Of a stretch of DNA of 64,000 nucleotides, positions 1 through 49,888 are shown one piece after another. Below the pieces are notes generated by a model. That model was not told where the DNA came from, made no database searches, and saw only the letters and a program-made list of their open reading frames with translations. The DNA is from Lingula anatina (Eukaryota > Animalia > Brachiopoda), in assembly GCA_051362555.1 (NCBI GenBank), contig CM120640.1:52864788-52928787 (forward strand), read 5' to 3'. Each line of letters begins with the position of its first letter. The first letter of the stretch is position 1. The translations under genes were made by a program, and so were the position numbers.

Positions 1-1969
1 GAATATACAATTTTAGGCATCAAAACTGTGACAAAGTTAATGCAGTAAAGGGCCAGACGACACCGCACGTTGAGCTGTGATTGATCGTCTGCAAACAAAT
101 TGCGGAGGTGGACAGAAGGGCAGTTGACAATCGGTTTTATCACTCCCCTTTAAGTAAATGCAAGAGACTGGATTAAACGCTTGACCACAGGATTCTTTCT
201 AAGTAATACTAGAAAGGAATTCTAGGCAATTTCCTGTCACAATCAAAGACTTTTGCGGTCAATTTAACACCGCTGTGTTCTCTCGTTATCGCCCTCTTGT
301 TTTATCTAGCCTTGTTTTACAGCGAAAAGAGCTTTTTGTCTCAGCTATATGCTATCATAGTCTATATCAAGTAAATGCAGTGATACAAGGTCTGGTGTAC
401 ATTTACAATGGGCAACGTGGTGCAGTCCCAATATGATCCAGGTTCGTAAAACTCAATATGATCTCAAACAGAAAACAAGTTGATTGCTTTGCCTCGTGCC
501 ATGAGTAAGGAAGTAAGAAAGAGATATCCTAGGACTTTGATAAACAGTAATAGGTAAGAAGTAAACAATTCATAAATTTCTCTTCATTAAACTTCTTTTT
601 GTAAACACATAATTAAATCAGTTCAGTAATTACCCTTTGTAGAATTCCACTTAATTGCAAGCTATTCATTCTAATACTGCACACCTGGAGCTTCAGTAGC
701 GAAATATGCTTCGAACTAGTGTAAACATGTCCTTGGGGAACTCTGGCGCTAATTAGGAATTAATGCTAACTAAACATTAGGATCACGTGTAATAATCCCG
801 GTGCGTCGAGAGTGCGGAGGAGTGAATGATTTTAGGAATTCCGAGGACTTTAAACGTCTCAGCTATTCCTCGAAAAAAAAAGCTCCCAGACAGCTAGAAA
901 TATACTACTAGAATTATTTAACCAAAAAAGAAGATATTAACTTGATGACGTGTAGAAGGCGCAGAGTATAAATATTTCTTATATCTAACCCACAGTGCAA
1001 CTTTCAGAAGGTACATTGTAACAGTTCGTATTCACCGATTGATGGACTTCTTGTTTGTTCGGTCATTACAAACATCTTGGGGAAAGTGTTTAGAGGAGCG
1101 AAAAGGGATTGTCAGGTAAGAAACCTTTTGCAATGAATACGCAAGTAAAAGCTTTTGTATATCACTTACACTGTGTGAATGTCGCTATTACCGAAGAATG
1201 GATCTTCAAGGACCCCAGCTTGCACTCGGACCGAATTGTTTTGGTGGTTTTTACACACCTCACTACCGTGCGGAAAACATCGGTTAGAATTGTGTGCCCT
1301 GTTTTCAGCAAAAACAAAAATATTTTATGTACAATAGGTTTGACGTGGAAGGATGAGCGGCACGTGTAGGTTGGACAAAAATACATCTTTAGGTATTTAT
1401 TGCTCTTACGTTTCCACATCTGCATAACTATTGTTTTTCCTGGTTGCTGAAGTGGGAAGGTGCCTTGTTTTTGTGTTTTTGACACCCTCTGTGTAGAAGG
1501 CGCAATTTCGAATGTTTTTAAAGTACCAAGAAGAAACAGTTACTTTAAATTAAAGTGGTAAGCATTAGTAATCCCCATCATGGTATATATACACAAATAT
1601 AACGCACAACTTGACAGGATAAATTATACTCAACCTTGGGATTCGATAAAGAATTTCGTAACAGCTGATCGATTTGACTTAGGAACTGTATTAAGCAGAC
1701 TGGTCTCGGGTCCAAGACCTATACACAAAACAAGGTATGTTTTATGCAGTTCCAACTCCTGACAACACTTAGTGAAATGTAAGCTTATTTTGGTACGTGC
1801 TATCGCATATTAATCGTTTATATTGAAAAGTAAAATATAATGATAGATAAAGATTCAATTACACTTATCCCTCCCTGTTTTCTTTTCAAAATAGCCAAAT
1901 TATGTGGTCGAATGGTAATTAAAAATTGCGCACGATCAATGATTTTGATTCTAAAAAGAAAATTACTTT

Positions 1970-2011
<42 letters not shown>

Positions 2012-8000: not shown

Positions 8001-8189
8001 GTTTTTGCCAAAGTGTTTGTGTTTCATATTAGGTAGTTATGCGCTTTGACACGCGTGGAACGCAGTGCACGCAGCTGCAGTAAGTAACTGTTAATGTAGT
8101 GTAGATCTACACTTCATAGGTAGGTACATTACGTAAGAACATCACACGCTGCGTGTATATATACACGTGCTGCATTCTGCATTCAAACG

Positions 8190-8431
8190 TAGGGGAGACT
8201 GGGGCTAGTTGGACCTCGGGGTAAGTTGGCCCCCCATCAATTTATGACAAAGTAACTATGGGGTATAAGAATTGATCACATCATTTTGTAAAGTGACTGT
8301 ATCCAATAGTGCCAAGAAAGCGTCGGCAGTGAGTCCAAATGAAAAAATTTAGCATCTTAAAGTAACTTTATTAAAGAGACTTGATGGAGGGCCAACTTAC
8401 CCCGGGGTCCAACCAGCCCCGGTTTTCCCTA
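8190..8431. mobile_element. MITE of about 240 bp with about 45-bp terminal inverted repeats, flanked by TA (Tc1/mariner/pogo-like)
   Basis: The left end taggggagactggggctagttggacctcggggtaagttggcccc is the near-perfect reverse complement of the right end gggccaacttaccccggggtccaaccagccccggttttcccta. TA lies at both ends and there is no ORF. Confidence 0.75.
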
Positions 8432-9171
8432 AATGCAGTAGGCACGTATACAAGTTACCATTGAAATGTTCGTACGCAGTATGTGCGTGTACAGTGTATA
8501 TAGTGGGCACTGAAAGTCTATTGAGCGTTCGTTAGTGTAGGACAATACGTGGTAGCTGTATATGAGTTTATTTCACCATGCTGCCATTGTTTTAAGTAGA
8601 GTAGGCCCTACTTTGACGCTGCGAAAACAATATTAAGAGGATGCCGTTTGATCCTATATCATCGTCTTTCGTAAAATAATTTCGAGTATCAACTGGATAA
8701 CGCACTGATTTTCTAGCTTAAGTAATCACAATCAACATGCCAGGCTTTCATACCGTCAATCTGACTTTTCAAATGTATATTGAACCGTGCCAATTATCTC
8801 AATGGTTATTATCCAAGTAAATTGATCAAATGACCAATAACGGAGATTACATATTATTACTTTTCTCAACATGTGCATTTCTCTTTTTTGCCGATGACAA
8901 TAATACCTTCCGTGCAATCTAACTAAGTGGGGTTTGCCATTTAGTCCGTCCTTATCAGTGTGTCGTTTTCCACCAACATCAAACTGCCGAAAAGTAAAAA
9001 ACAACGATGGTAATTTATCAAAGATCAATGGCATATCCATATTCATTCACAGCAGAACAACGATCGAACGACCTATCAATATCTCAAGTTACTTACACTT
9101 TGTGTTAATTGTCCAAATGAAAAACCTATACCATGTTGTTTAATTGTTTTATGGTCGAAGTTGTGGCATAC

Positions 9172-9301
9172 TATAAAAGTCAAACTGCCGTGGGTGCTTA
9201 TCATTGAGAACACGGCGGAAGAAGCTCGAAGAATTTGGTGTCCGTCTCCAGTGCTGTCCGTGACGTTAGTGTGACGTGGGAAATTGACTTCAGCCCCTTA
9301 G
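9172..9301 (+). promoter_or_regulatory. Candidate distal TATA/Inr promoter and non-coding first exon, possibly of the CRH/DH44-like gene
   Basis: TATAAAA at 9172-9178, Inr-like TCATT with its A at 9203 (31 nt downstream), and donor-like TTAG|GTAAAG after 9301. Confidence 0.35.
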
Positions 9302-12300
9302 GTAAAGTTAAAAATATGGTGATAAGATTTGAGTCTAGAATAACAAGTTAAGTGAACAGACGAGAGATGTCCTCTTTGATTGCTGTTTATGTTTTATTTA
9401 GAGAAATGTAAAGAATGAAACGGTATGCCATCTTCCAAGTTAATTGCCAAGATTATTGTTTTTGGTGTTTAACTGATCGTCAACATTGAACCCTACTGCC
9501 ATACTTAACGTAATATAAAGTGCAGACTACTTAAGGTCGAACTTGTGATGAAGGGTTACCCGTTGTGTCTAATTGAAATATTTTAAAAAGATCCGTCTGA
9601 ACAAAACAGCAAGTCTGAAAAGCATTTGATGTACTTCTTTCCTCCTAGAAACTTTGGAAAATCATGTTCCTGACCTCTTAGGAATGCTATTTTCATTCAT
9701 TGACTCAGGCCTCGATATATTTGAATCATATCTTTTTCTCCACAAGTTAAATAAATGACGTCTTTTTGTGATTCGGATTTAAAATAATCTAAACATAATG
9801 AAGGAATTTAAATAGCATACTTATATGCAATATATAAATCGACCAATAATACCATTGTTTACAGTAAGTTTTAAAAAATCATACAACGCTGGTCCCCGTT
9901 TTATTGTGAAGCGTGTATGCCACCGATTTTCAGCATAAAGCTTATAGCGCCCTGCTACCATAAGTAAAGGCTATTAATAGAATATGCCTACTAAATATAG
10001 ACATGCGATAATAGACCCAGCAGTTTGTCTCGCCTTTATTTTTCTTTTTCATATTTTATTGTCTGTTTGAGAGGCATTCTAAGGTGAACTTCCCTGCAGA
10101 CTGTGATAACAACAAGTTTGAAATCGAAACCGACATGAAAATCGGCCATTTTGAACATTGAAGTTCAAGAAACATTATCGCAATAAGTGTCCTGTAATAT
10201 TTCACCTTTGTCATGCTGACAACTGATATTAATGACATCTTCCCGTTTTATAGATTCAAAGCAATAACTAATTGCACTTGTGGTTAAGGCGCACGTACGC
10301 AGTGCTTTTTATTTTACTCTGACTTATTCTGAGGTTATCGTTAACAGTCCTCTTTCCGGTAATTCTTTTGCTTTTCTCTCTCTCACACACAGAGGTTCTT
10401 GTAAATGCGAGGGTTACGGCTCACTGTTCACCAATAAAAACAAGAATTCAGGATCTACTTGTGCATGGGTCGATCATGTACACATCATCGGTCCGGAAAA
10501 AGTAAAAAGTGGCATTTCTTAGTACTAGATGCTGGCATTTTATTTTATTTTTTCTTTGAGGGCATTCGTTTTCCTCCAAAGAACTAGAACTAGAAATAGC
10601 AAGTTTTATTTTTTTCACATCATTTAAATATATGCAAGACTTAAAAGGACCCAAAGTGTTCTTCAGTAAACATGCCAATTGGTTGTTAGCCAGAGAAAAT
10701 GCAATGATGGTAAAATTTTGCGGCATGTCACTTATTAGTAAAATAAAGTCACCAGATGACGCAACACTCAAGAAAGCTCGCTTTAAAACCGATCGGCGAA
10801 AGGACATGTGGGTTATCAGCTAGGATACTGGTAGTCTCTTTTGTGTAAAAGAAAATATACAAAATACTTTTTAAATACGGACGTTCTGAAGTCAGGTGCG
10901 CATAGGAATCCCGATGCTTGATCACAATGCATTGAAAACACCGCAATGCTGCTGTTGTTTCTGTCAGCGCTAGCTCTCGACACTCATTTCGTGGTTGCCG
11001 AGTCTAGAATTGTGCCAAAAGAATAGAAAACGCACTAATTAAGTGAAGCAATAGGAAATCAATAGAAAATCAAGGGTTTGCTAGTGGTTTTGAGAATGGT
11101 GTTTTATGTCTAACCTAAACCCTTTGAAATTAATGGCCATTTCGTTGAAAGTAACTGTGACAGAGGCAAGTTTTAACAAAGCAGTAGGTCAGGCCTAAGT
11201 CAACGTTTCAGTAGTGCGTCGCGGCATTGAGTGCATAACGGTTTAGGGGTCTTTACATGTAGCTCGCGCATGTGTATAGGTGATAAAGAATGATAACATC
11301 TTCGGGACAGCCCCGAGTAAAGTGCTCTTCAAAAGCAATAAGAGGTTCAAAGGGAGTAAAATCAGATGAGTTAAACACACGCATGTCGGTAATGGATGTG
11401 TCAATGATTTGCGGTTGAGTAGACAAGCAAATTTCCATGATATGTGGATGTATAAAACGTTTTATCTGGTATTTGGCTATGAAATTGTATTTAACAATGG
11501 AGCAAAATTGCTGAATTACATGTCATCATTTATTGTTATATATATGTTATATATTCAAAAATAACACCGTGCGACTTTGTGAAAAAGAACGAGGATAAAT
11601 TGCTGTCAAAAATATATGTTATTTTCAGAACAATTTTCAATAATGTTCAATTATTGAGAAAAAGACAAGAATGTGAAAAATATTAAAGTTTAGTCGATGA
11701 GATTTTAATCGAGCTAATGATTTAATTTAGGAAAGTAATCTCACACACTCATCTGAAGCAACACCTGCAGGTCGTTTTGAATTAAATTAGCTACGCCCAG
11801 TTTTAAAAACGGTAATAAGCCTATCTTAGAAGCGCACTCAGGGACCTATGGCTTTCAGTTGAAAGATTTTGGTACACATAAAGCGTTTTCACAGAGATGG
11901 AAGATGAAATTAGCTTGTTTATTATCCTAATTCCCTTCCTGGGCACAGGTACATAAGAAGAATGAAAACCACTGTTTTCATAGAGCAGGAGAGGACATCA
12001 ACCCATGATATACAATATAAAACGATTTTGGTCGGTTTACATTGGGGGAGGGATTGCAGCTCTCTTCCTCATGTCTCAATAGGAATGCTAGCCCGATATG
12101 TCTCATCCTAGCAGAAAAGCGATGATTTTTATAAACCGTTGCACAAGGGTGCACTTGGCCTGCTTCTGCCGGTTGCGTGCAGACTTAGTACACAGTTAAA
12201 TATAGGAGACCAAGGTTTACTGCAGTGAAAGAAGGAAAAAGTCGAGAAAATTATAGTCTGTCAAAATTCTAAATATAGCAACAGTCACTACACATTAGAT

Positions 12301-13241
12301 CATTGATAAACAGGGAACAATCAAAGTTCGTAGTTTTACCGCTGTGATAACGGTTTGAAAATAAATATCATCTCTACTTATTGCTGTTTTATGCCACTAT
12401 TCATTTAATTTATTTCTGTTGATATATCAATTTTATCGATTTTTCTTTCTTTTTTTCGTTGGTTTAGTTATATACATGTAGCAAGGTTCTAGGAGGCTAA
12501 TAGTGAAGTTTTCTTGCGTAAAATTCTAATCAAGCGAGATTGAGCTGCTAAAAACGCAATTTTAACTAATTTTTGCTTCCATTTATGAAAGTTCCAAAGA
12601 TTTTTACTTCTGCCAGCACCTTCTGACGCAGTCCTCTTTATAGAAACAAAAAAAAAAATATTTTCCTGTTTAATGGATTTTTATTCTGAAATGAGAATGA
12701 CGCCAATACAAGATGTAAAAAAAGAAGTTATATTTGAGACTTTGAACGTTAATTCGCTTTCATCTGATCATTTTGAATTGCTGTTACGTGTTTTAATTTA
12801 GGCATGGACATTTTTGTGCGTTTATTCCTTTTCCGTACTTAACGCCCCCCAGTGGCAGAAGGACGTGGAGTCGAAATCAGCCCATACCTCTCACAGCTGC
12901 CCTCTGCTCCGAAGCGTGACCGTTCACTTTTCTTTTATAGCATACTCATCACTCAAACACGTGTTGTACGTTCTTTTTAGCAGTTAATTAATAGGTGGAC
13001 CTCACAACAATTATGATAAGACCACTAAACAGAGCTTTATTTCCTCCCTTAACCATACGATACAGCCAGGGTGTTGTCTAGTATTAACTTCGCCCATGTT
13101 CACTTACCCCATCATTAAAAGTGAGATTTGGAAATGGAATTTGATTGGTCATTTAATTTGGATAAAATACGAAAAGAACATTTTTGTTTGTTTTTTGAGC
13201 ACAGTATCTGTTTGCACGCAACATTGACGTTTTTGTTTAGG

Positions 13242-13427
13242 TCACTTGCAATCCATACGTCAAACTAGTTTTAAAAAAGTGGTCGTTAACTCAACTATTC
13301 TGATTGCGTATGGCAATGACACTTTTCCTTTTCCTTTTCACTTGCAATTCATACGTCAAACTAGTTAGAAGAAAGTGGTCTATAACTCAACTATTCTGAT
13401 TGTGTATGGCAATGACACTTTTCCTTT
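13242..13427. repeat. Tandem duplication, 2 copies, period 96 bp
   Basis: tcacttgcaat(c/t)catacgtcaaactagtt...ggcaatgacacttttccttt starts at both 13242 and 13338. Confidence 0.85.
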
Positions 13428-14143
13428 GGGAACTTAAAGTTTGACAAATCCAATGCTGTCATTGTCCATTTACTCCAAAATTAGGCGTAATGCAATTAAT
13501 TGTTTTCTTGCCCACATCACCAAATAGAACATCTAGTATACAACTGCTGTGTTTAATCGGTTCGAAACCTGTAGGGACAGAAAATATATGAAAACATCGG
13601 GTTGTCGGAAGAAAAAAAAACTACCAGTATCTGACGCAGTTAAAAATGGATGGTTGTCTGTGGACTCGCGTTACAGAGGACACAATAACTTTTCCGGTTT
13701 TTATACCTGAATTAAGTCGTATTTCTGTGCGATTAATCTCCATAATTATCTGCCTTGTTTTTTATCTGCACCGCACACCTTTTTCCCACAGATGAGGTAT
13801 TTGTTCATTGGACACAGGCTTGCAGATTTTCAAGGATTTCGAAAATGTTTTTTCTTATCAGAAGCTCTTTGAAAAACGTCTTAGCTCTAATCTTGCCGCC
13901 TCATTTATCAGTGGTTAAGTAGGCTAGAAAATGTCATTAGTAACATACAGAGATTTCCATGAATGGAGCGACGAACAATTGCGAACGGTTGTTTTGCCCC
14001 ATGTAACAATAAAAACGAATTAGCAATTTCCGCAGATAATCATAGTACGGGATGATTTTAATGCTGTGTCGCTTAATCGCTGCAAATGCACGGTGTGTGA
14101 CTTTTACTAAGGTATGAGGTGGGATAAGATCAGAAAATGAGGC

Positions 14144-14177
14144 TATAAAAGCTCGTGGGCTATGTGAGTGATCAGTT
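14144..14177 (+). promoter_or_regulatory. Proximal TATA box plus initiator of the CRH/DH44-like gene
   Basis: TATAAAA at 14144-14150 and TCAGTT Inr with its A at 14174, exactly 30 nt downstream. A donor follows at 14557|GTAAGT and an acceptor tttccag| at 14655 lies just upstream of the ATG at 14672. Confidence 0.6.
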
Positions 14178-14671
14178 AGTTGAGTGCACGTTGAGCTGAG
14201 CACACCGCAGGAGCGGTGCACCACTCATAAGATCGATTTTACTGCGTGCTTCTCATACAGATATTATATTGCAATGAAACCAGTCAGGAATAAGTTTCAA
14301 TTGATACTATAAGTTAATCAAGGAGCTGTCAATAGAAAACTTGCTGTTTTTTCTTTTGCCTCAGGTGGGTGTTCTCAGCGGTGCAAGGAGCTATTAATTC
14401 AACTGATGACTTATTGCTTGCCAAGTGTGTAGAGGTTATTTATTTAAAAAGCTGTCGAGCAGCGCGTGAGACATCATTTCAAGCTGTGTCGCTTAGTGAA
14501 GATGGCCAAGTTAAACTGTATCTTAATTTTCTTTTTTAGATCATTTGGTTTTACTTGGTAAGTTTAATTAAACAGAGCTTTTCAATTAGCTAATTTTTAA
14601 AAAAATTTTCCGCATCTATATACACTGCTTATTTTTGATTTGTTTTTCTTTCCAGGTTTGAACCAAAGATT

Positions 14672-17600
14672 ATGACGACGTCACAAACAGCGTGGTCAAT
14701 CGTGCTCCGATTATTTTTACTACTAACTGTAGCCTCTCTACTCATACCATCCGCCCGAGGATACGTTCTGCCAAATTTAGACACAGTCCCAGAGGAATCG
14801 ATGCTTCCGGAGGTTCAAGACAGTGACTACAAAGCCAACAGAGTAGCCGACAAAATAGTACAAGTTTTATTAGAATCCAGAAAGGTCCACCACAGGGTTA
14901 AAAGACCGAGTAAGCACCATTCCCCTTCATCTCGTTATCAATTTAAACCGAGTAAGTACCCCTCCCTGTTAACCAGTTACTAACCTGGTGTGTGGTATCA
15001 CTGATCATTTACTGCGGCAACCACTTCCTAGAGTCGTCAGCAGCAAATTGAATATTTCACGTGTTATTGTTGAAATTGTTTTTTTTTCTTTATAGAACGA
15101 TGCTCAGCAGTTGACTTCGTTCAAATCTGCGCTAAAATTATATTGACAAGGTTAGCATCGATGCATTATTGTCAGCTTGTGTCTGCCTACATGTGACAAA
15201 AGTTGAGAACAATCATCGTTTCTTTTTTATTCAAAGAAAAAAGTAATGCAATTTTCAGATGCCTTGCTGACAGTAAATCATTTGTGATGAGGATTGTTTA
15301 TAATCCTACTTATCATACCTTTTATCCTTCCTCCTTCTTTCCATCCATGCCTCCTTACAGTAGCTTTCAACAGTAAAAGAATTTTTATTTTCAAAGCAAA
15401 TCTAATATTTTTTATGGTACACAATCTAATTATATAACATATTAAGTGTGTGTTTAATTGTATGACGTATTTAATCCATCCACCCGTGTGCTTGTGGTAT
15501 TGTATCCTCCATTTTTCGTTTTTATATTAATCTTGTTTCATTTTTCGTTATACTATATTGGATGTTTACGGTGAAATGCAAATTCTATAACAAACCCCTA
15601 CATTTATGGTACTTATAACATTTACCCCGTACGCATAATAACCTTGGACTTTAACATAAATTATGGAAACATGAAAATGAAAATAGCAGGTCAAGCTGGC
15701 AAATGAACTTGTCAAGTTTGCCCGTATGATAATTATAACTTAATGAGCGTAATACGTGTGGATATAATGGCAATGAAATATACGTTAATTATACGCCTAT
15801 TCGTTACTAAGCGTCTAAGTGCATAGAACGTACTGACACTGGGGCTCGCATGTCAGTGATGTCCGAGTACGTGATTGTCTAAACCGTATAAGTTGACCTT
15901 AGCGGTGACATCCGAGAACATGGTACAGAAAGGCACTAACTATGGTGTCACCCCCGTGTCCTCTTCATGTCGGACACGGATCTCTGATATCAGCACATAA
16001 CTAAAGCACCTGGCAATGTGGTATTCAATACCCCTGCATCATTTTGTCACTCTTATTGTCCTTAATTTCTTTTCATAAACCAACGTAGTCTGAATGGGTG
16101 CAGACCGTGGCTTGCACCTAGTCTTGCTTTGGCTTGCGGTCCACCCCCGACCACGTCCTGACTCCGGAACTGAGTAGATATTGTGCAACAATGTCGCCGA
16201 TTCTTGTTTACTCTCCATGAAAAATTGTGTTTTGGCTATTTCTGTTAATTTGTTCTTAACTTCGCGTTCAAATGCCATTCACATTCAGCCTATTGACATA
16301 ATCGATTGCCTTCCGGTTATATCTCGCTTTTGGAGACTTGTTCCTTCATACGGAATGATATATCACTTTGTAATTATAGACAACCGTGTACATAAGTTGC
16401 AATACAAAATGTCATGACATACTCATTGTGTGCAAAATTTATTAGCCTTTCTTTTATCCATTCAAAGTCATTGAGAAGATCCTGTAAAACACAACTGTAC
16501 AAAGAAACGCCTTTTTTTATAAGTCGATTGGTAACTATTCTTGCCGGTAGCGTTGCTTTATGTCTTTTATCGTCATTTGCCTTGAAGGGTCTCTATCGTT
16601 TATCATGACAACAATGTTTTTTAAGAAAACAATGTCGAAGGTTTGGAACTTGACTTAAAAGGGAGGCGTCTCTTGTGTTAAATAATACTTGTGAAGATTA
16701 GGTCATAACCTGATCACGACAAAGTATGCCTTTGAAACTCTAAAGGCCATAAAGTATCTTGATCTTATACAGTACCCTAGTATACTCTTTATGAATCAGA
16801 TTGATCTCCACGCTCATTTAAAGAAGCCAATTGGGAACAGTGTAAACGATTTTCTTTGAGTAAGCTATTAAATTTCAAAAATAACATACCTAAGCCGTAA
16901 CAAACCAGTGAGCATGTTTTCGTCGATACTTAATTAACTCCGACTTTTGCGTAGAATTGTTCTAACTTATCGATCCAAAGTTTCAAATTTTGTTTACTTA
17001 TCTATTAACACTTTATTCTCGGGCGCTATAGCTAATTTACGCTAGATTACCTCTTCGTTAACTATTACGAATTTCAAAGGAGCACCTTTTCCATAGATGT
17101 GTTTTCTTCGCTTACTAATTAGTTTCCTTCCTTGTGTGTTATGGGTGTCCTAGTACGTTGCCTTTGCAGTTGCATGTTTCCAATAGTGTTTATTGGTTTA
17201 AGGCTGACATATAGATATTTTTGGTGACTTTTAACTCCAGTAACCGACCCACCTGTCCCCCCATTGTGTCTTGCTCAAAGATTCTCACCTTCCGTGCTCT
17301 TAATGAAATATAAGACGTTTGAGAAGTCGATACTGTGTCATTAGGAACATATAGTGAACGCCATTGCGAGTAGGTTGTCATTAAGTAGACTTAATTATAA
17401 AAGACGCAAATCTTTGAAGTGTATTCAAAGGATTGTGCAGGATTTGAACACACTTCTTTGAACTGCAATACTTTTTTAGACTTGCAAAAGTTCTTTACTG
17501 GAAGGTCAGATTTTTTTCTAAAACTTAACGTGTACTTGTTGGTTTTTCATTTAATCTCACAGTTTATGTTCACTTAAGTGTGACGTCACAGTGGTCAGAT

Positions 17601-17847
17601 GATCAATATGAGCCAATCATAGCCTTCCATTTATGAACTTTATTCACAACGCACGTGTCTGAGAAATTTTCTGAATTTGCTTATTTCTTGATGTTTTATA
17701 GGTATAGCCGGACTTGACAACATCGATGTTGCTATAAGTACTTTAGAAAGAGCTAGAGGAAGTCGGCATCGTGAACCCGTGCTTGCTCTGGGAGGTATGA
17801 GTTTTGCAGATTTCAGGAAACTTTTTGAAAGCGGAAAACGAAGATAA
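14672..17847 (+). CDS. Secreted neuropeptide precursor, CRH/DH44 (ELH)-like; 127 aa; coding exons 14672-14909 and 17702-17847
   Basis: Exon 1 encodes a hydrophobic signal peptide (MTTSQTAWSIVLRLFLLLTVASLLIPSARG), an acidic pro-region and an RVKR site. A phase-1 GT-AG intron joins it in frame to give RVKR-PSIAGLDNIDVAISTLERARGSRHREPVLALGGMSFADFRKLFES-GKRR-stop, a 45-aa peptide with an amidation signal. Its N-terminus PSIxxxxxIDV parallels insect DH44 PSLSIVNPLDV. The family call is by eye. Confidence 0.75.
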
Positions 17848-20800
17848 CATAGACTTCCGGACGATGCGAATTGGGTTCGTCTTCTAACCTTACTTCGCGG
17901 ATGATATAAAAGAGACTGGTTGGAGAGTAATTTATTTTCGTACCATATTTTATCAGTGAGACCCTCAGATAAAGTATTTGTATATTTTGCTCTTTCACTA
18001 TATTTATTAAGTTATTCACTTTATGTAAGCACAATTGAACCCAAGACATGTAATATCTCAATATTATATAGACGATGGCGCAGTATGCCATTGTGAGAAA
18101 CATTCCTGCAGTTTTGAACAATTTTTCGTATCATATCAACGCCAGCATGTATGCCGTATGCGCACGTCCAGGAACACCTACATTTAGAAGAAGAGGCCCA
18201 CCTCTCCTACATCCTGCTGCACCCGACAGTTTCTCATAGGAAACAAACTGACACTTATCTCTTTACTGAAAGGTTCAATTGTTTAATGTGAAAGTCCCAT
18301 GATTTGACAAATACTGAACAGATCAAGATTCAAGCGCAATTAGTTGAACCAAATCCCAAAGGAGAAATGACTCTGGTATAGCAAAAACCAAAGAATAGCT
18401 ATTCCGAATGCTTGACTCGGTCAAACCGATACAATAGTGCTTGCACAAGTATGCTAAGTACTTTTACCACTTGCTGGTCATGAACTGATCTACCCAAAGA
18501 TACTTAAGTCGAGCTTTAGTTCATGTTTTAGTTTGTTTTGCGTTTTATTTATAGTAGGCTAAGCCTTATTGTGTCATATTGAGGAGTAAAGGTACTCCAA
18601 ATTTCAGTCCCAGTTTTAGATGAAGCCAGGGTTGCCTGAGCATTGTTATGTACAAAACGTTTGTATATATAAGATGTGCATTGAAAATATAGAAAGATAC
18701 TAATATTACCATTTTATTCCTGTGTTGTTCTTTTGTGAAATGAATCGAAGGTCGTTACTGGCGTTCTTACACTGTATAGAGAACTGGTTAGTGAAACATG
18801 TTGATCTACTTTTCTATTACTACGAGTATCAAATGGTTATGTATATAAAATATGGTAATGTTTTATCGCGCAAAAAATTGTTCTGGAAAACACTTTCCAT
18901 AAAAAAAAAACACAGTTGCACTACCTAGCAGCTGCTTTGATCAGCCAATATTGAAAAGGCAACATAAAAAGTGTACCCGGAAACAAACTACATGTAGATT
19001 TTAAAGTGTCTGAGCAAACGCTACTAAAACGTGTACGTTTGCCAACAGACCGTTCTCAAGAGAATTTGCAAGCTCTTTCAAATTCCAAGAAGTGAATGAC
19101 TCGCCTTTCAAGGCGGTGCAGACACATTAAACAGTGAGTGACTCGGAAAAGTGATGTTATGGTTACTTACGCATGTTCATTTAGTTTTAGGTCACAGAGA
19201 AACGCAATGTTTGTTTAAACAGTCTCTGGGGTTGATTTTACAATGAAAAATACAACGAGGGAGACCTGAGTCTAACTTACCACTGAGAAAACCCACGGGT
19301 TTCCTGAATACAAACCAATTTATTCAATACACACTGAATATTCTTAATCTGACCTATAGGGCGATCAAACTACGTATATTTTTGCTGTGTAAGAAGAACG
19401 CCTAAACGACTGAAATTGACCCGCCGCCCAGTAGCATTTAAATTTCACCGAGGTATCATGTTTTGGCGATACCAAAAGAGAAAAAGTAGACTCAAAACAC
19501 TTGAGTGCTTTAAAATATTACTCATACCTACGTGTAGTATGAAACATTATCATGTTAAACTAGGGTGTTACCATGTACATAAAACACAAAAGAAGAGCAA
19601 AACCAGACTACTAAACTCTCGACCACCTCAGAGAATTACTCATATCAACATGTTATTGCGCTGGGATATTTTGTTTGAGTGCCAATATTTAACAAAAGTA
19701 GATTACCAAACACTTGACAATCACAATGTGAGAAAAGTGCCTTTACTTTGCTTCAATCAGAATCAGTCAATTTATTCGTTAAAATTGGGCATCCTGTGAT
19801 CTATGCACGGCAGTAGAGTCTCACTGTGCTTTGTGAGTCACCAATGGAAATTGTGAAAATCGGCCAGTGAGTAAGTGTTACAATGCCTTACAATTTGAAT
19901 CAAAAATATCCGTCTGGTTCTCTGTGAGCACGCGTTTGAAATCATCATTCTGCTTGAGTCAGCTTCAAAATTTTACAAACCGTTCATCCCACTGGGTTTC
20001 TCGACTACACAATTATATTCAACAAGTTCAGTTACGATGGTCAATTGATATCAGCCAAAAAGCTATAATAGGAAATGATCACGACGCCCAAATGTGACGA
20101 TTCACCGTTATGTTTCTTTAACAACATGAGAAAATTAAACTTAGTGCCGAGAGGATGTATGATTATAGTCCTCAAAATAACACCATTTATTTTGCGTATT
20201 CTAACTTAAATTCGTGCAAAGATATGCATATCTTAGGAGACCATTTGGCCTTGACGGTTAGATACTGCACATCACGCCCATAATCTACAAGTACGTTAAC
20301 CCGTGTTACTATTGTGTGCGCTATAAACCCACTGATGAAACTGATTAAAGCAATCTAATAGCTTAGGATTAAAAAAAGGACCGCTGTCTGGAGACACTGA
20401 ATTGAAAATGAACTACAAAAATATATGGCTATAAGTTCTAAAAATGAATCACAAGGGTGAACGCTTTTATAACGTACAGGTCGTAGCTGTGCCCACTCGC
20501 ACAAGTGAGCACACTTATAAAATTGAAATTATCAATTCAACTGTTAGTGCATTGTATCAAGATATTAAGGACAAATCCATTATGCTGCAGCAAGCAATTG
20601 TACTGCATCTTATCTGGACTTTATTATAATAAGATAATCTCTTAGATGAACTAGGTAATGACCAGACCGGTGTTGTCTTCATTAAGCCCACTCGTCAAAG
20701 GCCAGTCTAATCATACATAGTATATATGATATAATGTAGAACGCAGTTTGTAATTAAAGAAATACCCGTTTAAGTTTCTACTAGTACACCTTCCACGATT

Positions 20801-33106: not shown

Positions 33107-33600
33107 ATGAAGAAACCAATGGTAGTTCAAGTATACGCATCATTATTTTGCGTACTCCTCATATGTTTGACAGTTACAGAAGCATACTCATATATAAATG
33201 GGTAAGTTTTGCTACAGGATTTTTGTAAGTTGTATAGTTTATTTACCCTAAAGCGGTTCCTGTATCGCCTTTTCTCTACCGAAATACAAGAAAATGAAAG
33301 TTAAGATATATGATCATTTTCTCATTAAGTAAAACGGTTAACCCCTAAAAACATCAGCAATGTATGTTTGCCTTTTTTCGATTTAGATGAAACCGTAGCA
33401 TAAGATAGATAAATTTATAGGCCATTTTGCACTTGTGCATTCTTATGTTTTCAGCTTAGAAGATCAGGTCACGGATTTAGATAAAGAAGTAGATGTACTA
33501 TCAAATTTGGTCAGGTATCTAAAATCAAGAACGACTAACGGGTAAGAATGATGAACTTATTAGGCTTAATTTTGAAGTCTAACATATTGTATGAATGGAA

Positions 33601-33654
<54 letters not shown>

Positions 33655-36600
33655 TTGCTTGATGGGTATCTAAACCTCATATGTCAGACATATGTTTGAT
33701 AACAAGAACAAGAAGAGTTCAAAACAAAACAAAATGTCATAAAAATAATGAATTAAATACCCTGTTTAGAAGTGGCTAGTTTAGTCTTTGAAGGTTGCAT
33801 TTACCGTTACTATTCCTAAAGGGAAATGGAAGGCTATGCGTATGAGCAATTCAGCCTCTTAAAATCTAGAACCCAAACCCACAACTTTTAAGTCAATGGC
33901 CATTACTCAGCAATTATGAACGAGCATGTAATCATGAAAAAGTGATTTAAAAACATGACAGTGTAAGAAATGACAGTCTCGAGCTCACTAAGGATACACT
34001 AGATATCGCATGGGTGTATTTGTCAATTGCATATGTCATCAATTCAGGTAAGACAACTGTGGATGGACCAGGGAGGTTATTAAAGATCACACACACCCCT
34101 ACCGGATTCAGGAACGGCTATTATGTTCCTTGTAAGCGTGTTTTATTTGCCTGGCTCATTCAGATGTCACAGATTGCACTTACATACATCATTTGCCAAC
34201 AACTAATGTTTGTTTATTTTGCCTCAAAGTCTACCGACTTGACACATGATGACTGCTAATCGTTCAATAGCCCATCGATATGAGTTACGTCCATTCGGGG
34301 GGATTTACAACATGTTTTATTTGCTTAAGAAGCCATTAATGTCAGTTAATACATAGACGTCACCATTATCATTTAAAGATGTGCCTAATGGCCGATAAGG
34401 CACCCAATGAAGTGGCTTAATGCCATTGTTTTCATTATTGCAGTGTTAAAGCTATGAGTAGTGACATTTCCCTCAGCTGTCTTCACATTGTGCATTTCTA
34501 CTGATTTTGTACAGCTGGTTATTTGCATAGACGAAGAACGGTATGACTAATTCAAAAATTGGTGGGCGTTCACGTTTACACGTGCTTAAATCAGTTAAGA
34601 TAGCGACCAATTAAAGATGTTTTCAGGATAAAAATAGATGCTGCATTTTTAAAATAGACTGTCATAAAGTTGAGGGACAGTGAAGCATAAAAAATTGTAC
34701 TCGTGTCTGTATGTTTGTGTTTGTGGTGTTGTTAAATATTACTGACTTCAATAGCAAGATATTTATTGCAAAGTTAATCATGTTTTTGACCCTTAGTATT
34801 GGGGTAAAATTTCAATTTCACTTATTACATAACATCTTTGCAATTACAATCATCACTAATCACTTGTCATTTTACATGTGATAAATTATTTTTCAGACAC
34901 ATTCGAAAGATCTTGAAAGTAACGATGATCACTTACTATATCAAAGATTGTAAACTCTTAAAGATCCATTAAAAAGAATTTAGAATTATCAGTCAATTGT
35001 TCATCATTGTCTTTTATAGTCGCAAACGGCAGATAGACGCAGGCTTTGGCTCGAGAAACACGTTGGCACAGGATATTAGCAGACTAGTGCTAGGTAAGCA
35101 TATACGTATATGTAAATGTAAATTGAAAGCACGCGATAACTGCATCGGTAGATGACAGCTTCGTATGTTACAAGACTTGTATATTCATTAAAACGTTTCT
35201 CCAGGAAGTGATTGTGTTTTGAAAGACAATCCCATTCTAGGCTGAATAATAACATTAAAATGCACCTCGGCCGCGCCCCGTGGCTGTCTATTGGGTTCCC
35301 AAGTCTGGTTTTACAAACCTCAAATCAATGGCACCAGCATTCCGTTTCAAAACTGCCAATTCTACTGTAGACGCTTCAAAGAGGCGAATGAGCAATATAA
35401 TTCAGAGTTACTCTTTGAGTTGTGAAGCGAAGTACCAACAAAAACTGATTCTTTTTCACTGCAAAAATTCACACAAACTTAATCTCTACTGGGAATAATT
35501 AACCGACGGTATGAGTCGCTCTATGGCATCACTGTTATTTCCATACAAATGTATTATTTATAAAGTCTTTGAAATGTATGTTGCATCGATTTTCATGCCA
35601 ATCAAACGTTCGTCTTTTATAAGAAATTAGAAAATTTTGTGTTCATGAAATATTTGACAATCAGTGCCAGAAAAAAATTGACTTCTCAAACAGATAGCCC
35701 TACATTTTCTGGTTACCACACTTCACGTTCAAAAGTGAATTCTCAGCTATCAAAATGTATATGATGTTCAAAAACCCAATTCAGTATGTATGTATGTATG
35801 TAATACCATAATGTGACCCTAGCATTATTTTGAGCCTAAAAGCATTATAATTGGGATTTTGTATGTACATAATTGGTAAATGGACTAAGTAGCTTATGGA
35901 CATTTGCGTAAAATTTTTATATGACGGATGGAAAAATAATGTTCACTAAAAGCAAAATCTTTGATGCAGAATAATATTCTTGCGACCCCAATTACGCAGC
36001 GCAATAAAGTCATTATTTTTCGATGTTGCCTTTTGCGAGGGTGGGGGGTGCAGGGGGTGGAGGGTGTCACTTTCCTCCCTTTTCCTCATCTAGCATCCGT
36101 ACCATGCCAACAACCATTTGACCATTCCTTCACCAGAACACACGTTCTCGAAAAAGTTTTCTCGCATCACATATCCTCAAATACTGGACCTAATTAACCT
36201 CAAGAAAACACATTTACAAAACCTGTTGAATGTTTTTCGACAATTTGGTTCGTACCAAGTATCAAATATATTTGCATATCAAACATGGAGACGAAAAATT
36301 AGTATTTTAACATTTTTATGCACATTTATGTGTTCGGGCGCCTGTATTTCAAAACTGCCTTATCAATATCGCTTGCAATGAGGTATTTTTTATTTTATTA
36401 GATCATAAAATCACATCGGTGTTATGGGCACGATTTACGTATTGTTGTTGGTGCTGAAACGTTCGAATACCAGCGCGAAATAACTTATGTGAAATCGTTT
36501 TAATCCATTTACTGAAATGAACAATGCTTCCCACGCATTTTACGAAAGTCTTTAAAAGGAACCAATCACAGGTTTATATATTATTAGGGATTTTTTCCAC

Positions 36601-36829
36601 GGGTGGAATAATAGGTTGGCTAGCACAAGCCGCAAGAGCCACTGTTCGACATTTCTGTGCATAACTGTAGCATGTGACTGTAGTCCAATCATTGAAGCAT
36701 CCATATACCAAATATTTATTCTTTTTAAAGAAAATTTTCTCACTTTTAGCCCAACACAAAGCCCAGAGCTACAACAGTCCCGGAAGAAGACGAAGGAGCA
36801 TCAATACAAATAGTCAGCTGAGGCACTGA
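33107..36829 (+). CDS. DH31: DH31-type (Cys-free calcitonin-family) neuropeptide precursor; 111 aa; coding exons 33107-33201, 33455-33541, 35020-35093, 36750-36829
   Basis: The spliced product is MKKPMVVQVYASLFCVLLICLTVTEAYSYINGLEDQVTDLDKEVDVLSNLVRYLKSRTTNG-RKR-QIDAGFGSRNTLAQDISRLVLAQHKAQSYNSP-GRRRR-SINTNSQLRH*. All three introns are GTAAG...AG with matching phases (2,2,1). The 32-aa peptide ends in Pro-Gly-basic and carries the xIDAG(Y/F)GSR motif of annelid-type DH31. Confidence 0.85.
33604..33650. repeat. (TC)n microsatellite in a DH31 intron
   Basis: Uninterrupted dinucleotide run. Confidence 0.9.
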
Positions 36830-43027: not shown

Positions 43028-45126
43028 ATGTTGCCAGAATGGAGAAGTTTAGCTCACTGGGGTATGACTATTGTATTTTTCCATATCCTTGTTCTGAATC
43101 TAACAGGTGCCTCAAAACTGGAAGCCCTCAGGTGAGTTGTGTCATTTTAAAAGTCAGGATACATTAGAAAACTAATTACAGAAAATGTTGTGAACAGTTA
43201 CATACATTCCAGAGTAAGCAGAACTCGCAGAAAGAAAATCAGGTATTATTGCAAAACGCTGGGACGAAAGGTTATTTTGTTTAAATGACGTTTTCTTGGT
43301 CAAATGAACAAAAAATTGTAAATGAAAACATATATTTTGTGTCCTTTAGTGTTGATAAATGAGCTTGCCAGTGTCATGAAGGACCGCAGGTCTGGAAGTC
43401 TATTTATGATGTTGTCGGTCGACTGCAGTCAGTATGATGATGATGATGATTAGTATTGATACATTCATTGATTTGGGCCTTTGGAAAATTGTCTGTTTTA
43501 CATTCTTTAGAAGTATTAGAAACCTAAAACGCCAACGCAGCCAATTTTCTGAAATGAAGCGAGTATTAGAAGAAATCGACGCCGATTTATTGAAGCAACA
43601 GTAAGTATATCGAAACGATTTATTTTTGTGACACTCTTTGGTAGGGCCTATGTAACAATGAGCGCTTCTTCAGCGCATTGTTTACCCTTGGGCTTTTCTG
43701 CTGTTTTCATTTCTTCAAATAATTGCCCATACAATGTATTTCATATGAATCATATGGTGTCGTAATTCATTTTTTTGGTATAAATTTGAGTTTCAAGGTT
43801 GAAATTCACACGAATATTTGATAATAATATAGAACATTACGGATTACAGAAGAAAATGTCTTCTCGTATGGTATTTGTAAAGGTTTGAGTACAGCACAGC
43901 GTGTATATTTTCAGGAAACGGACATGTGCACTGAACGGGGGCATGAGCACTTTCTGTTTTGGAGAAAACATCCATGATAAAATGAACGCATATGAGTATT
44001 TGGGTAGCCACAAGAGTCCTGGCAGAAGAACCATCAGATCCACAGGAGATCTTCATGCTTGGCGGTAAGTTTTATATTTGGATTTCATCTGTTTTCTATA
44101 GGCTACCATACAAGTGTTTGCTCAAGTGTTGACTTACTGAAAGAATGGAAACCCCAACCAAGCCCTCTAAATGTGCCATTTGGATATGCAGCTTTTTTCA
44201 AGCAGTAATTTTATGTATATGGCTTTTCTTCATTTATTAAACGGAGACAATTTAAAAAAAAATTTTTTTAATACTGTAGACATTTCTTTTTATAGATTTG
44301 CAATTGAATTAGTTCTCACTTAAGGTATACAATATAGCACTTTCCGCACTCTTTTTAATCACTTTAGCACCACCGATGACGCATTTGCTGCAAATGCCTT
44401 GCGAAAAAATCTTAACAAAATTCTTTTCACGTCATTAATTGCTAGATGAACATAAGCATGTGTTAACATGGCGCAAAAACTTTTTTCTGGAAATATCAGA
44501 TCACAGATTACTGCAACTCAAGGACCATACAATGTGTTTGACCAGACAATCAACTTGTCATTTGAGTGCAAATTTGTTATGAAATGAAGTTGATATGGTG
44601 TCTACCTTTCACATTCCAATGTTGTGGGTTCACAAAATAGCTGTCTCGCGTTCTCAGAAACTGCACTGTAATGAAGTTAAGTTTGACGTTGTCCGTTGCA
44701 TGGCAAGATTACTTTTCCCGTGATAAGATTACTTAATGATTTTAATAAATACAACGCATCGCTGGTTCAACAGCTTTCATGATCATCGATCATTTCAGAA
44801 CCACACAATAGCGTTTTAAAGGAAGAAGGCCTACTTCTTAACAGGAAAATATCACGCTCCTGCCTCTTATATTTTGGCTTTGATAAATGATATTTGATAT
44901 TTTTTTCCCTCTGTTGAAGGCGAAAGTCGAATTTGCAAGATTTAGATAATATAACATAAAAGTTTACATATATATATATAGCATTGGTAAAAGCAACAAT
45001 CAAACACCCATTGTCAGAGACATCACATTGAGTCTTTATGACATCGCTTAACAACCAAAATAAACAAACAAGATGCAATGAAACCGGTCGGGGCAAAATA
45101 ACTGCTCTTCTTTATGTCTTTTTATC

Positions 45127-45157
<31 letters not shown>

Positions 45158-47153
45158 TAACAAATTAATATTATAATGTTCACTCAGATGAATATATGTT
45201 ATGCCATATCCTCGTCATTTAAGGCTTATCTATTTAGATTTACCATCGAGCCTTTGTCTTCCAATTTGATTTGGCACCAAAAAGACAAGATCATACTTAT
45301 AATATACGATAAATTCCTAACGTCTTCATCGAACAAATACATAAGAGTGGTTGTAGCGCATGCAGATCACGCTTATATCAAATGGCACCTTTCAAATTTA
45401 GTTAATTTCAGCAAGTCTGGTTAATTTTTTTTTTTTTTTTTTTTTTTGGTTTTCAGAAAACGAACCTGCAGCGTGAATGGAGGCATGAACCCATTTTGCC
45501 TCATCTCCGACCTTGACGCCAAGCTTAACGCCCAAGAGAAACTTGGCAGCAAATTCGGACCTGGTAAAAAACGTGACAGTAAACCGAAATCAAGGTAATA
45601 ACACAGTCATTTTCATGAGATCTCTAAATTATTTAAAGCATAGCTCTAGTCATCTGAACATAGGGTCTTAGCCTAATCTGACCGATTACTGACAGACAAC
45701 GATATTTTACAGCGGTATAAATCGAGAGAGTATTATCTTATAAAGCTTAACTTCCATATTGAAAACTTCTTAGTTTTAAATTATAAGTGTTAATATTCCT
45801 GCATTGAGACTTTCAAGTCGATATTGAAACTGTATTTTTCCACAGGAAAAGGCGTTCCATTTACTGGACTGGACCATGTCCATCAGGAACGGGCACCTGC
45901 AGTTATCCACTGGTCCCCGCCAGCCAACCGTCCCCGTCCATAGGGAATACTGGCAACATGTATGGAGTAAACACTGGCTTAGGTAAACCCAATTTTGGAG
46001 GGTTTGGTGAACCATTTAAGAGAGCCCAATCAAACAGTAACTTTTATCTTACTGATGAAAACCCCTACGCCTTCTACAAGAGAGGCAATCCAGCTGACAT
46101 GGACAGGTTCTACTTCAATGATGACGAGTCCATGTCCAACTTTTACAAGAGAGATGGCGAAGATGGAGAATTTGATATGTTTGTTCAGGGAGAAGACGTC
46201 GGTCTCGGAGAGGATTCCGAAAGGTATTTTTTCTTCACTTTTACAAATTTTCTATCGTTTTCCTTTCATACATGTAAATCTTACCATTATCTGAGCACTG
46301 TAAATGTTAAAACGATTTTTTTTGCTATAGTATCATTTTTAGTACATGTCAACCAGTTGAAATTGATAGTTGACATTGTGACATAATTACCAAAAACCCT
46401 CTTTACATTATTTCAGCGTTCTTCGCAGTATAGCGAGAAAGAGAAGTGGAATCTCGTCCTTGAAGCGTCTGCTAAGCAACTTGGATGCACGCCTTCATAA
46501 ACAACAGTAAGTTGCAACCATTTAGCTTTTAATAGTTAGCGAGATTTCTTATTTAGACAGTTAAAGAAGCAAAAATAATGAAAAAAATGTGTTCAATAAG
46601 AGCAATGCAAAAATTCATGAATAAGTGTTATATCCCTTTTCAATCATATGCTTTATAAGATCAAGGTACAGCTTCAAAAGTTACACTGATGTCTCCAAAA
46701 ATAAAATCACCATTAATAAAAAGAAAACTTCATGCCTCACTTTATCATGTTACCGACTCCAGGAAACGCGCCTGTCTCATGAATCTGGGCCACTCTTGTG
46801 ACGTGGAGAGTGCAGCGGCAGCAGCCGACACTTGGAAGTACCTGAACTCCGTCCACAGCCCAGGAAGGCGGCGCCGGGACACAAGGGCGGCCAATAAAGA
46901 TCGCAACACCGACGAAGCTGACGATAAAAGGGAGGTAACAGATGACAACTCAGCCGACGAAGAGAAGCGCGAAGAGGAGACGGCAGCTTCTGATGAATCC
47001 AAGGCGGACAAACGCGAAGAGGGTGTCAAACAAAAAGGTGGAAGCTTCTACAGTTTTTATCCATCCCGACGTAGTGAGGACTGGCAAAGTTCTGACGGTG
47101 ACGACGCTTCCCGGTTTTATTCCAAGTTTTACAAACTGGTTCCATTCTATTAA
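43028..47153 (+). CDS. Calcitonin-type neuropeptide polyprotein, about 446 aa; coding exons 43028-43131, 43511-43600, 43915-44064, 45457-45594, 45846-46223, 46417-46506, 46763-47153
   Basis: The first exon encodes the signal peptide MLPEWRSLAHWGMTIVFFHILVLNLTGA. Six GT-AG introns, all phase 2, give one open frame. It contains KR-TCALNGGMSTFCFGENIHDKMNAYEYLGSHKSP-GRR, KR-TCSVNGGMNPFCLISDLDAKLNAQEKLGSKFGP-GKKR and KR-ACLMNLGHSCDVESAAAAADTWKYLNSVHSP-GRRRR. An N-terminal Cys pair plus C-terminal Pro-amide in 31-33 aa is the calcitonin signature. Confidence 0.88.
43915..44064 (+). CDS. Exon encoding calcitonin-like peptide 1 (33 aa, C-x9-C, Pro-amide)
   Basis: ttttcag|G AAA CGG ACA TGT ... AGT CCT GGC AGA AGA ... 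TGG CG|gtaagt. The + strand frame is absent from the ORF track. Confidence 0.88.
45457..45594 (+). CDS. Exon encoding calcitonin-like peptide 2 (33 aa, C-x9-C, Pro-amide)
   Basis: Poly-T tract, then ttttcag|A AAA CGA ACC TGC ... GGA CCT GGT AAA AAA CGT ... TCA AG|gtaata. 16/33 residues are identical to peptide 1. Confidence 0.88.
46763..47153 (+). CDS. Terminal exon encoding calcitonin-like peptide 3 (31 aa, C-x7-C, Pro-amide), acidic KR-delimited spacers and an FY-rich tail
   Basis: ctccag|G AAA CGC GCC TGT within ORF 46689..47153. AATAAA lies at 47553-47558. Confidence 0.88.
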
Positions 47154-48391: not shown

Positions 48392-49888
48392 TTACCCATC
48401 TTTTTCTCGCAGTTCTGCAAAATACAACTCAGGAATTTGTCCCTCTTCAACATCTGTTGAATTGGTACTTCTTGAAGTGCTTGCAAATTCAAAGGATGCA
48501 TTCCCAGATTTGACAAATTTGAGGCCATCATAGCCCTTCCTTGTTGGTAATCCGTTTATTACCACACTAAGTATATACCATACATTAGCCTCTAACTCCA
48601 CCCCAGCCATTCCCATATCAAACTGATATATATCACTCTTCATCTTCACCTTGCATATATCTTGTCGATCATAAAGACAAAGTCCATTCAAATCTGATAT
48701 TTGAAGTTTCACATTATATTCGGTGGACAAGCCTTTTTCTTCAGGCCCATATAAACCAACCCCATAGAGCAATATATTTGTATCACAGCAAAACACTATT
48801 GCATCAGTTTCCCTACCATTAACCACCCATCCTGATTCTGAATTTCTAAACCGTTTACATTTCTGCAGTTTGGAGTTTTCCTGCTTAGGCAAGCACCTCC
48901 TGCTGGTTGGAAAAGGGACATTAACTCGATTGCCAGTAATCAAATAATCAAGAACTTCCTTTGATTCTTCTTCCCGGAGGATTCCCTTTTGAACCACTTT
49001 GGAGTTGAAAAACTGTACACTTAGTAATGGAAAACGTATAAGATACAAACAATTCCCTAGTACCAATCTAAAATTAGTTCCAATGAGCTCTAAATCCTGT
49101 CTTTTGCATTCTGATTCTGCCCAATGGCAGCATGCTTCATATACACCTGACTCTGGACTACGCAGAGTATCTCGACTTAAAATAAGGGTCAAAGTTTCTT
49201 GCTTGATATGTAAAAATGACTCACACTTCAACACTGTTTCTGTATTGATATCTATATACTGCAGGCACTTGTCTAGGAGATCAGCCTCTCCAAATGACAA
49301 ACTTTGTTCCAGTATTGTGCAGACATTTTCATCGTCCATGCTCTCTTGCAAGTAACCCTGACAATGGCGAATCAGTCCTGATAAGAGGTACTTCTTGGCT
49401 GCATATAATACCGCCATTACATTGAGAGGGGTAATATTGCACTCTTCAAAATAAATATACCTGAAAATGGAAAGGGCAAGTTATTTCTTGCTGCAAAGTG
49501 CCTTTGCTCCCTGATGTGATTGTCCTTTACATATATTACTGGCATTTTCACTGTGGTCAGATTTAGATGAAAATATTTCATGGAAACCAGACCATTACCC
49601 TGAACTGTTTTCATTGCATTGCTTGTGCACTAATGGAAATGTGTTGTACCTGTGTTTTGTATGGCAAACAAAACAGAGAAAATACATTACCTGAGTACAA
49701 CCATAAAGCTTTCCTTATCTAGTTCTGGGACAACAATTTCTGGTTGCTTTTCTGCCAGTGTTCCATAGAACATTGTAAAGAACACGGAACTTCTACTGAC
49801 CAGCATATACTTGTGTGCTGGAATAGGCTCCTGCTCCTCTCCCACTATAAAACTCACATCAGAAGCAATGCCCTTCTCCAACATGTAC
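48392..49888 (-). CDS. BTB/POZ-BACK-PHR domain protein (BTBD1/2/3/6-like Cullin-3 adaptor); exons 49888-49691 and 49460-48392; 5' exon(s) not resolved
   Basis: BTB motifs SDVSFIVGEEQEPIPAHKYMLVSRSSVFFTMFYG and LRYIY...NVMAVLYAAKKY are joined across a phase-2 GT-AG intron. BACK motifs WAESEC and LYLIRFP follow. The PHR domain runs from CKRF..SGW..DAIVF..LYGVGLYG to STNSTDVEEGQIPELYF. Confidence 0.92.

Follow-up and report, generated by a model that had tools for sequence, protein, structure and literature searches.

Class-B1 receptors are engaged by their peptide ligands in two steps: the C-terminal helix of the peptide binds the ectodomain and the N-terminus activates the receptor. Chordate CRH and urocortin and the insect hormones DH44, DH37 and DH47 are ligands of such receptors. 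Like the gene described below, they carry one long amidated peptide, placed at the end of the precursor or close to it. The oyster peptides of this family measure 38-42 aa and that of starfish 41 aa, and conservation in the DH44/ELH family sits at both ends of the peptide (PMC6425005 and PMC4200219). Echinoderm peptides initially called CRH-type turned out to be PDF-type; hence, by-eye assignment among class-B1 ligands can fail.

In brachiopods, the receptors of this family have been described ahead of a ligand. In PMC8557429, DH44/ELH precursors are reported in nemerteans only, with none in six brachiopods and none in four phoronids, and CRH/DH44 receptors are reported in five of the six brachiopods, including four in Lingula. 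The number of Lingula CRH-type receptors is given as five, arising as species-specific duplicates, in PMC7200681. PMC8557429 also assigns the Lingula calcitonin, DH31, cerebrin/PDF and QSGamide/iPTH precursors to other genes, and lists one uncharacterised PDF-like receptor and a single PTH-like receptor. No paper title or abstract opening in the literature searched pointed to a brachiopod CRH/DH44 ligand.

Here we describe a gene located in a 64,000-nucleotide stretch of Lingula anatina DNA, hereafter the window, whose C-terminal peptide we read, from its sequence and with a probability of about 0.65, as a divergent ligand of the CRH/DH44/ELH type, the group of stress and egg-laying hormones. 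A search with the last exon gave 100% identity to XP_013396994.1, which identifies the gene as LOC106163843, annotated as "uncharacterized" by NCBI. Its locus and protein identifiers drew no mention in the open literature searched, subscription papers, figures and bioRxiv supplements being outside reach. Two motifs of the gene had no match in the PMC8557429 supplement, where two motifs of the neighbouring calcitonin gene had four each, and one motif had none in the portions searched of the PMC6425005 supplements.

Five RefSeq models are available for the gene, isoforms X1-X5, and beyond the choice of donor they differ just in upstream exons within 1042-14558. XP_013396994.1 corresponds to isoform X5 and carries exactly the junction 14909 to 17702, so the splice that a preliminary description of this DNA had proposed from the letters, yielding a 45-residue peptide, is identical to an annotated one. 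The hydrophobic leader, the RVKR site, the donor CGA/GTAAGC at 14910, the acceptor at 17702 and the terminal GKRR-stop on which that proposal rested are all present in the sequence. The acceptor reads TTTTATAG/G and, when the isoforms are mapped to the window, it is common to the five NCBI models, as is the GKRR end. Translation of the ORF spliced in this way gives 127 aa terminating in GKRR-stop, with a hydrophobic N-terminus after ATG 14672 (hydropathy 2.0-2.8 in windows beginning at residues 7-17). The precursor reads as a predicted signal peptide, an acidic spacer, RVKR and one 45-mer with an amidation signal at the C-terminus (Table 1).

Table 1. Features of the LOC106163843 locus and of the neighbouring peptide genes (window positions)
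Feature	Position	Strand	Basis
Alternative upstream exon, partly translated in isoforms X1 and X5	1042..1116	+	NCBI models
Upstream exon of isoform X4	1353-1382	+	NCBI models
Upstream exon of isoform X2	4258-4317	+	NCBI models
TATA-like box TATAAAA of the likely proximal promoter	14144..14150	+	sequence; RNA depth onset, bin 14148-14321, RNA run X9
Upstream exon segment, isoform X3	14502..14558	+	NCBI models
Main coding exon: ATG 14672, predicted signal peptide, propeptide, RVKR; 3' end at 14909 in isoform X5, 14951 in X1-X4	14656..14951	+	models; RNA depth
Predicted signal peptide, 30 aa, putative cleavage after A-R-G	14672..14761	+	hydropathy
RVKR furin/convertase-type site, putative cleavage	14894..14905	+	sequence
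42-bp tandem duplication with both 5' splice sites (GT at 14910, 14952)	14905..14988	+	sequence identity
Phase-1 intron within a Ser codon; 5' end 14910 in isoform X5	14952..17701	+	NCBI models
Last coding exon: remainder of mature peptide, GKRR (17833-17844), stop	17702..17847	+	NCBI models; RNA depth
3' UTR, approximate end	17848..18700	+	RNA depth up to bin 18672-18845
DH31 gene, coding exons 33107-33201, 33455-33541, 35020-35093, 36750-36829	33107..36829	+	joined exons
Calcitonin gene, three calcitonin-type Cys-ring peptides	43028..47153	+	amidation-signal scan of the window

The four alternative upstream exons of the NCBI models span 13 kb (1042-14558), and their in-frame ATGs place 24-31 residues ahead of the signal peptide. 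These residues are probably over-extended annotation. Because the signal peptide begins at ATG 14672, the upstream exons are probably 5' UTR in vivo.

LOC106163843 is a real, transcribed gene. Eight of nine raw-read RNA runs carrying the same species label were covered, over 13800-19000 in four of them (0, 20, 12 and 9 reads) and over 14100-18000 in the other four (0, 18, 4 and 0 reads). The total of 63 reads comes from five runs, the three at zero (RNA runs X1, X2 and X5) constituting no test. Depth lies on both coding exons, 5' of them and along the 3' UTR to about 18.7 kb; the main coding exon is covered in five of the eight runs. At a threshold of three reads, no splice joint was found in the eight runs. 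In one mate direction of RNA run X8, depths of 0.17, 0.50 and 0.47 in three 131-base bins amount to 22 + 66 + 62 = 150 letters, from which we infer one read spanning 14951/17702. It was assigned to donor 14951 because the 66 letters in the bin fit that donor, and 14909 would leave 24. A read across 14909/17702 was seen in none of the eight runs.

An internal donor-like site, 17794/GTATGA, had been singled out in the preliminary description as one whose use would remove the GKRR end. It appears unused: all five models keep the GKRR end, and the bin 17768-17898 lies wholly within two X8 reads, so that the site is read through. Near it, position 17790 shows G>A in three of three reads of RNA run X8, a synonymous change (Leu) and likely an allele. 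Intronic reads occur at 16410-16757 and 17375-17636, about two in RNA run X4 near 16.5 kb and four in X6 near 17.5 kb; they are probably unspliced RNA, an unannotated exon being the alternative reading. The low read counts would fit a secreted protein that yields no signalling peptide from its C-terminal piece. We regard this as extremely improbable, since RVKR and the terminal G-KRR-stop are kept in five of five models and the gene stands in a neuropeptide-gene neighbourhood.

The main coding exon has a second in-frame donor, CGA/GTAAGT at 14952, located 42 nt downstream of the first and used by four of the five isoforms (X1-X4). Its use adds 14 residues between RVKR and the 45-mer, giving a 59-mer. 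Hence, the 45-mer put forward earlier as the mature peptide is encoded in one of the five NCBI models (X5), whereas the other four encode the 59-mer; likewise, the proposal that the peptide is split by the intron after its first residue holds for X5 but not for X1-X4, where the intron follows residue 15. The two donors lie in a direct repeat: 14905-14946 and 14947-14988 are identical at 27 of 42 positions, and at 22 of 37 outside the GTAAG core (binomial p 3.5e-5, for one offset chosen post hoc). A window-wide background contained 24 regions at the level of this repeat, but simple repeats were left unfiltered in it, and the binomial test was preferred for that reason. The repeat unit is made up of five exon bases and 37 intron bases, and its tandem duplication therefore accounts for the distance of exactly 14 codons between the donors. 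The added stretch of 14 residues is likely former intron turned exonic by duplication of the donor, which makes the 45-mer probably the older of the two forms, although most models carry the longer one. The duplicated donor would then be a tidy, small-scale example of intron sequence joining the activating end of a hormone. By the usual rule for monobasic processing, the only Arg of the extension, whose positions -6 and -8 are His and Lys, is a possible cleavage site, and trimming there could shorten the 59-mer to a 49-mer. The predicted monoisotopic masses of the amidated 45-, 49- and 59-mers are 4897.6, 5463.9 and 6564.4 Da.

Which family the peptide belongs to was judged mainly from its two ends. 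Family peptides are dibasic-flanked, amidated and about 25-47 aa long; the 45-mer predicted from X5 lies within these bounds, and the 59-mer is longer than usual. The N-terminal register used in the preliminary description is that of insect DH44. From lophotrochozoan members we derived the N-terminal motif S-[IVLF]-x3-[LM]-x2-[LI]-x3-hydrophobic. The strict spacing S-[IVLF]-x3-L is absent from the Lingula peptide, which matches after deletion of one residue; the loosened pattern occurs in 883 of 500,000 shuffles. The C-terminal pattern [RKQH]-L-[LFYM]-x-x-amide is present as K-L-F-E-S-G (1,666 of 500,000 shuffles), which puts Leu at -4 from the amide, the place it occupies in the family peptides compared by eye; the last residue, Ser, is atypical, most listed members being hydrophobic there. 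The loosened N-terminal and the C-terminal pattern were found jointly in 2 of 500,000 shuffles, a post hoc figure, as the patterns were loosened after the peptide had been seen. With gaps placed by eye, both ends are one residue short relative to lophotrochozoan DH44/ELH. Also by eye, the N-terminus shares 5 of 13 residues with a Platynereis DH44 repeat and 6 of 14 with nemertean DH44 (one gap), the C-terminus 6 of 12 with Aplysia ELH (one gap, the amide-donor Gly counted), and the C-terminal two thirds 10 residues with Pinctada ELH1, the mid-peptide P-V included (three gaps).

By eye, the closest known peptide is bivalve ELH1, the first peptide of the precursor in Pinctada fucata and Crassostrea gigas. 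It is amidated and 40-42 aa long, and has, as here, L-x-R or L-E-x-x-R after the N-terminal motif, a mid-peptide Pro and an aromatic-x-x-hydrophobic-R-K..L-aromatic-x-x-amide end. In the Lingula peptide each end motif is one residue shorter and the middle about 5 longer, and its precursor carries one peptide, against two in bivalves. Nemertean and Platynereis DH44 share the start S-[IV]-x-(x)-G/S-L-D-x-[LI] and Leu at -4. A Gly/Pro-rich middle and, in the repeats, KR-Pro boundaries recall Platynereis in particular, and a single copy behind an acidic spacer recalls Tubulanus. In contrast to nemertean and Platynereis DH44, the S-I to L spacing is one shorter, the last residue is Ser rather than Leu/Met, and nothing extends past GKRR. 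Aplysia ELH has a similar C-terminal A-D-[LF]-R..L-[LF]-E-x-amide, but it is continuous, 36 aa long and released from a precursor that includes bag-cell peptides. Gene structures differ as well: chordate CRH is encoded by one coding exon, and beetle DH37/47 has the whole peptide and its cleavage site on the last exon, unlike the Lingula gene, whose intron lies inside the mature peptide. The preliminary description had taken mid-peptide helix breakers as the mark of a distinct subfamily; this idea loses ground, as Pro/Gly also occur mid-peptide in bivalve ELH1 and Platynereis DH44.

Database searches returned the gene itself. With the first exon, the full precursor or the last exon as query, protein searches retrieved Lingula isoforms alone and no homologue outside Lingula; three non-self entries among the four matches of one last-exon search were unrelated repeat proteins and were set aside as chance. 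No match was found in PDB sequences or the ESM Atlas, a single PDB match at E 0.58 being dismissed as it falls in the spacer, and tblastn detected no paralogue of the gene within the 64-kb window. Neither the five isoforms nor the two translated exons gave a match in Pfam, but this says little, because three of three calcitonin/DH31 control stretches of the window were missed too. The CRH/DH44 identity proposed earlier consequently stands as the best reading, with by-eye matches at both ends and CRH-type receptors without a listed ligand, but it lacks a statistical match. With the strict N-terminal spacing failing and a profile match absent, membership in the CRH/DH44/ELH family is not established and, the strict motif having been tested and having failed, the gene is filed as a variant rather than a confirmed member. 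The same negative results would suit an amidated peptide that is specific to the lineage and belongs to a different family or to none known, for instance one acting on the orphan PDF-like class-B1 receptor of Lingula (PMC8557429), its likeness to DH44/ELH being convergent, and the earlier CRH/PDF confusion in echinoderms is a precedent. We nevertheless hold this to be unlikely, since both ends resemble one and the same family, the CRH-type receptors of Lingula have otherwise no listed ligand in the accessible literature, and the Pfam blank is uninformative.

If the peptide is a CRH/DH44/ELH-type ligand, as we favour, the precursor would be exported via its predicted signal peptide, cleaved at RVKR and after G-KRR, and amidated to ...KLFES-amide. 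A single-sequence structure model (pLDDT 67.6) has two helices, spanning 5-19 and 34-45 in the residue numbering of the last exon, with a 14-residue break between them, so the mature peptide may adopt a helix-break-helix fold. Donor choice would yield the 45-mer (X5) or the 59-mer (X1-X4), the latter possibly trimmed at its single Arg, and the product may activate one or more of the 4-5 Lingula CRH-type class-B1 receptors through Gs/cAMP. The peptide is thus a concrete, synthesisable candidate for brachiopod CRH/DH44 receptors that have no listed hormone, which makes the ligand-receptor pairing directly testable, and the gene may serve as a seed for finding the CRH/DH44 ligand in other lophophorates.

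LOC106163843, DH31 and calcitonin stand in tandem on the same strand within 47 kb. The joined DH31 exons correspond to the Lingula DH31 precursor printed in the PMC8557429 supplement. No further gene was recognised between the three, among listed ORFs of at least 100 aa and with no Pfam match for the three ORFs of the gap that were scanned. This adjacency, together with the class-B1 ligand type, raises the possibility that LOC106163843 is a third tandem paralogue beside the DH31/calcitonin genes, strongly diverged from them and acting on calcitonin/DH31-type receptors; GGMS is common to the gene and the first calcitonin peptide, and the propeptide bears a loose likeness to that of DH31. The peptide itself speaks otherwise, having no cysteines and hence no Cys ring, and ending in F-E-S-G where its neighbours, with their C-terminal Pro-amide, end in P-G. 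The position of introns differs too: the inspected DH31/calcitonin junctions are in phase 2 just ahead of the dibasic site, that of LOC106163843 is in phase 1 after it, and the latter gene has no intron behind the signal peptide. None of 27 alignments reached significance (221 of 3000 shuffles equalled the best one), although this is a weak test, as the DH31-calcitonin pair also failed (139 and 308 of 3000); the peptide slices were offset by one residue, with little effect on local scores expected. Altogether we find such a paralogy improbable.

A further identity considered was that of an iPTH/PXXXamide/QSGamide-type ligand of the PTH-like (cluster B) receptor. In its favour are the R-x-K-R site, a similar length and the S-G-K-R end, the last as in several QSGamides (PMC7224569), but the gene has neither the conserved N-terminal SD, nor Pro at -4, nor the QS-type cysteines, nor a C-terminal extension past GKR. 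As these hallmarks are absent and the iPTH gene of Lingula, which has two transcripts, is a known and different locus, this very improbable identity was dropped.

Under the CRH/DH44/ELH reading, the three-gene row allows a synteny test of a shared tandem origin of CRH-type and calcitonin-type ligands. In its boldest form, which we consider quite unlikely, the gene would be the brachiopod CRH/DH44 ligand, the 47-kb row a relic of an ancestral class-B1 ligand cluster in which one tandem duplication gave rise to the CRH and calcitonin families, and the duplicated donor a splice switch tuning the activating N-terminus among expanded CRH receptors. Published linkage of these class-B1 ligand genes was not found in the accessible portions of the literature searched.

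Several observations concern the neighbouring genes themselves. DH31 and calcitonin, described as paralogues, adjoin each other in the window. One DH31 intron is in phase 1 within the mature peptide and two are in phase 2. In the calcitonin gene, two helical spacer exons resemble each other (0 of 3000 shuffles reached their score), which suggests an internal exon duplication, and its region 45850-46221 encodes a 2-Cys segment and Tyr/Phe-rich dibasic-flanked peptides. Tail to tail with it lies a BTB-BACK-PHR gene (48392-49480, minus strand; Pfam PHR E 4e-30, BACK 1.6e-12), a usable synteny marker. Finally, in Table S1 of PMC7224569, the "Sepia officinalis gene 2" placed among iPTH entries resembles a calcitonin precursor, with a Cys ring and a Pro-amide, and is similar to the last calcitonin peptide of the window.
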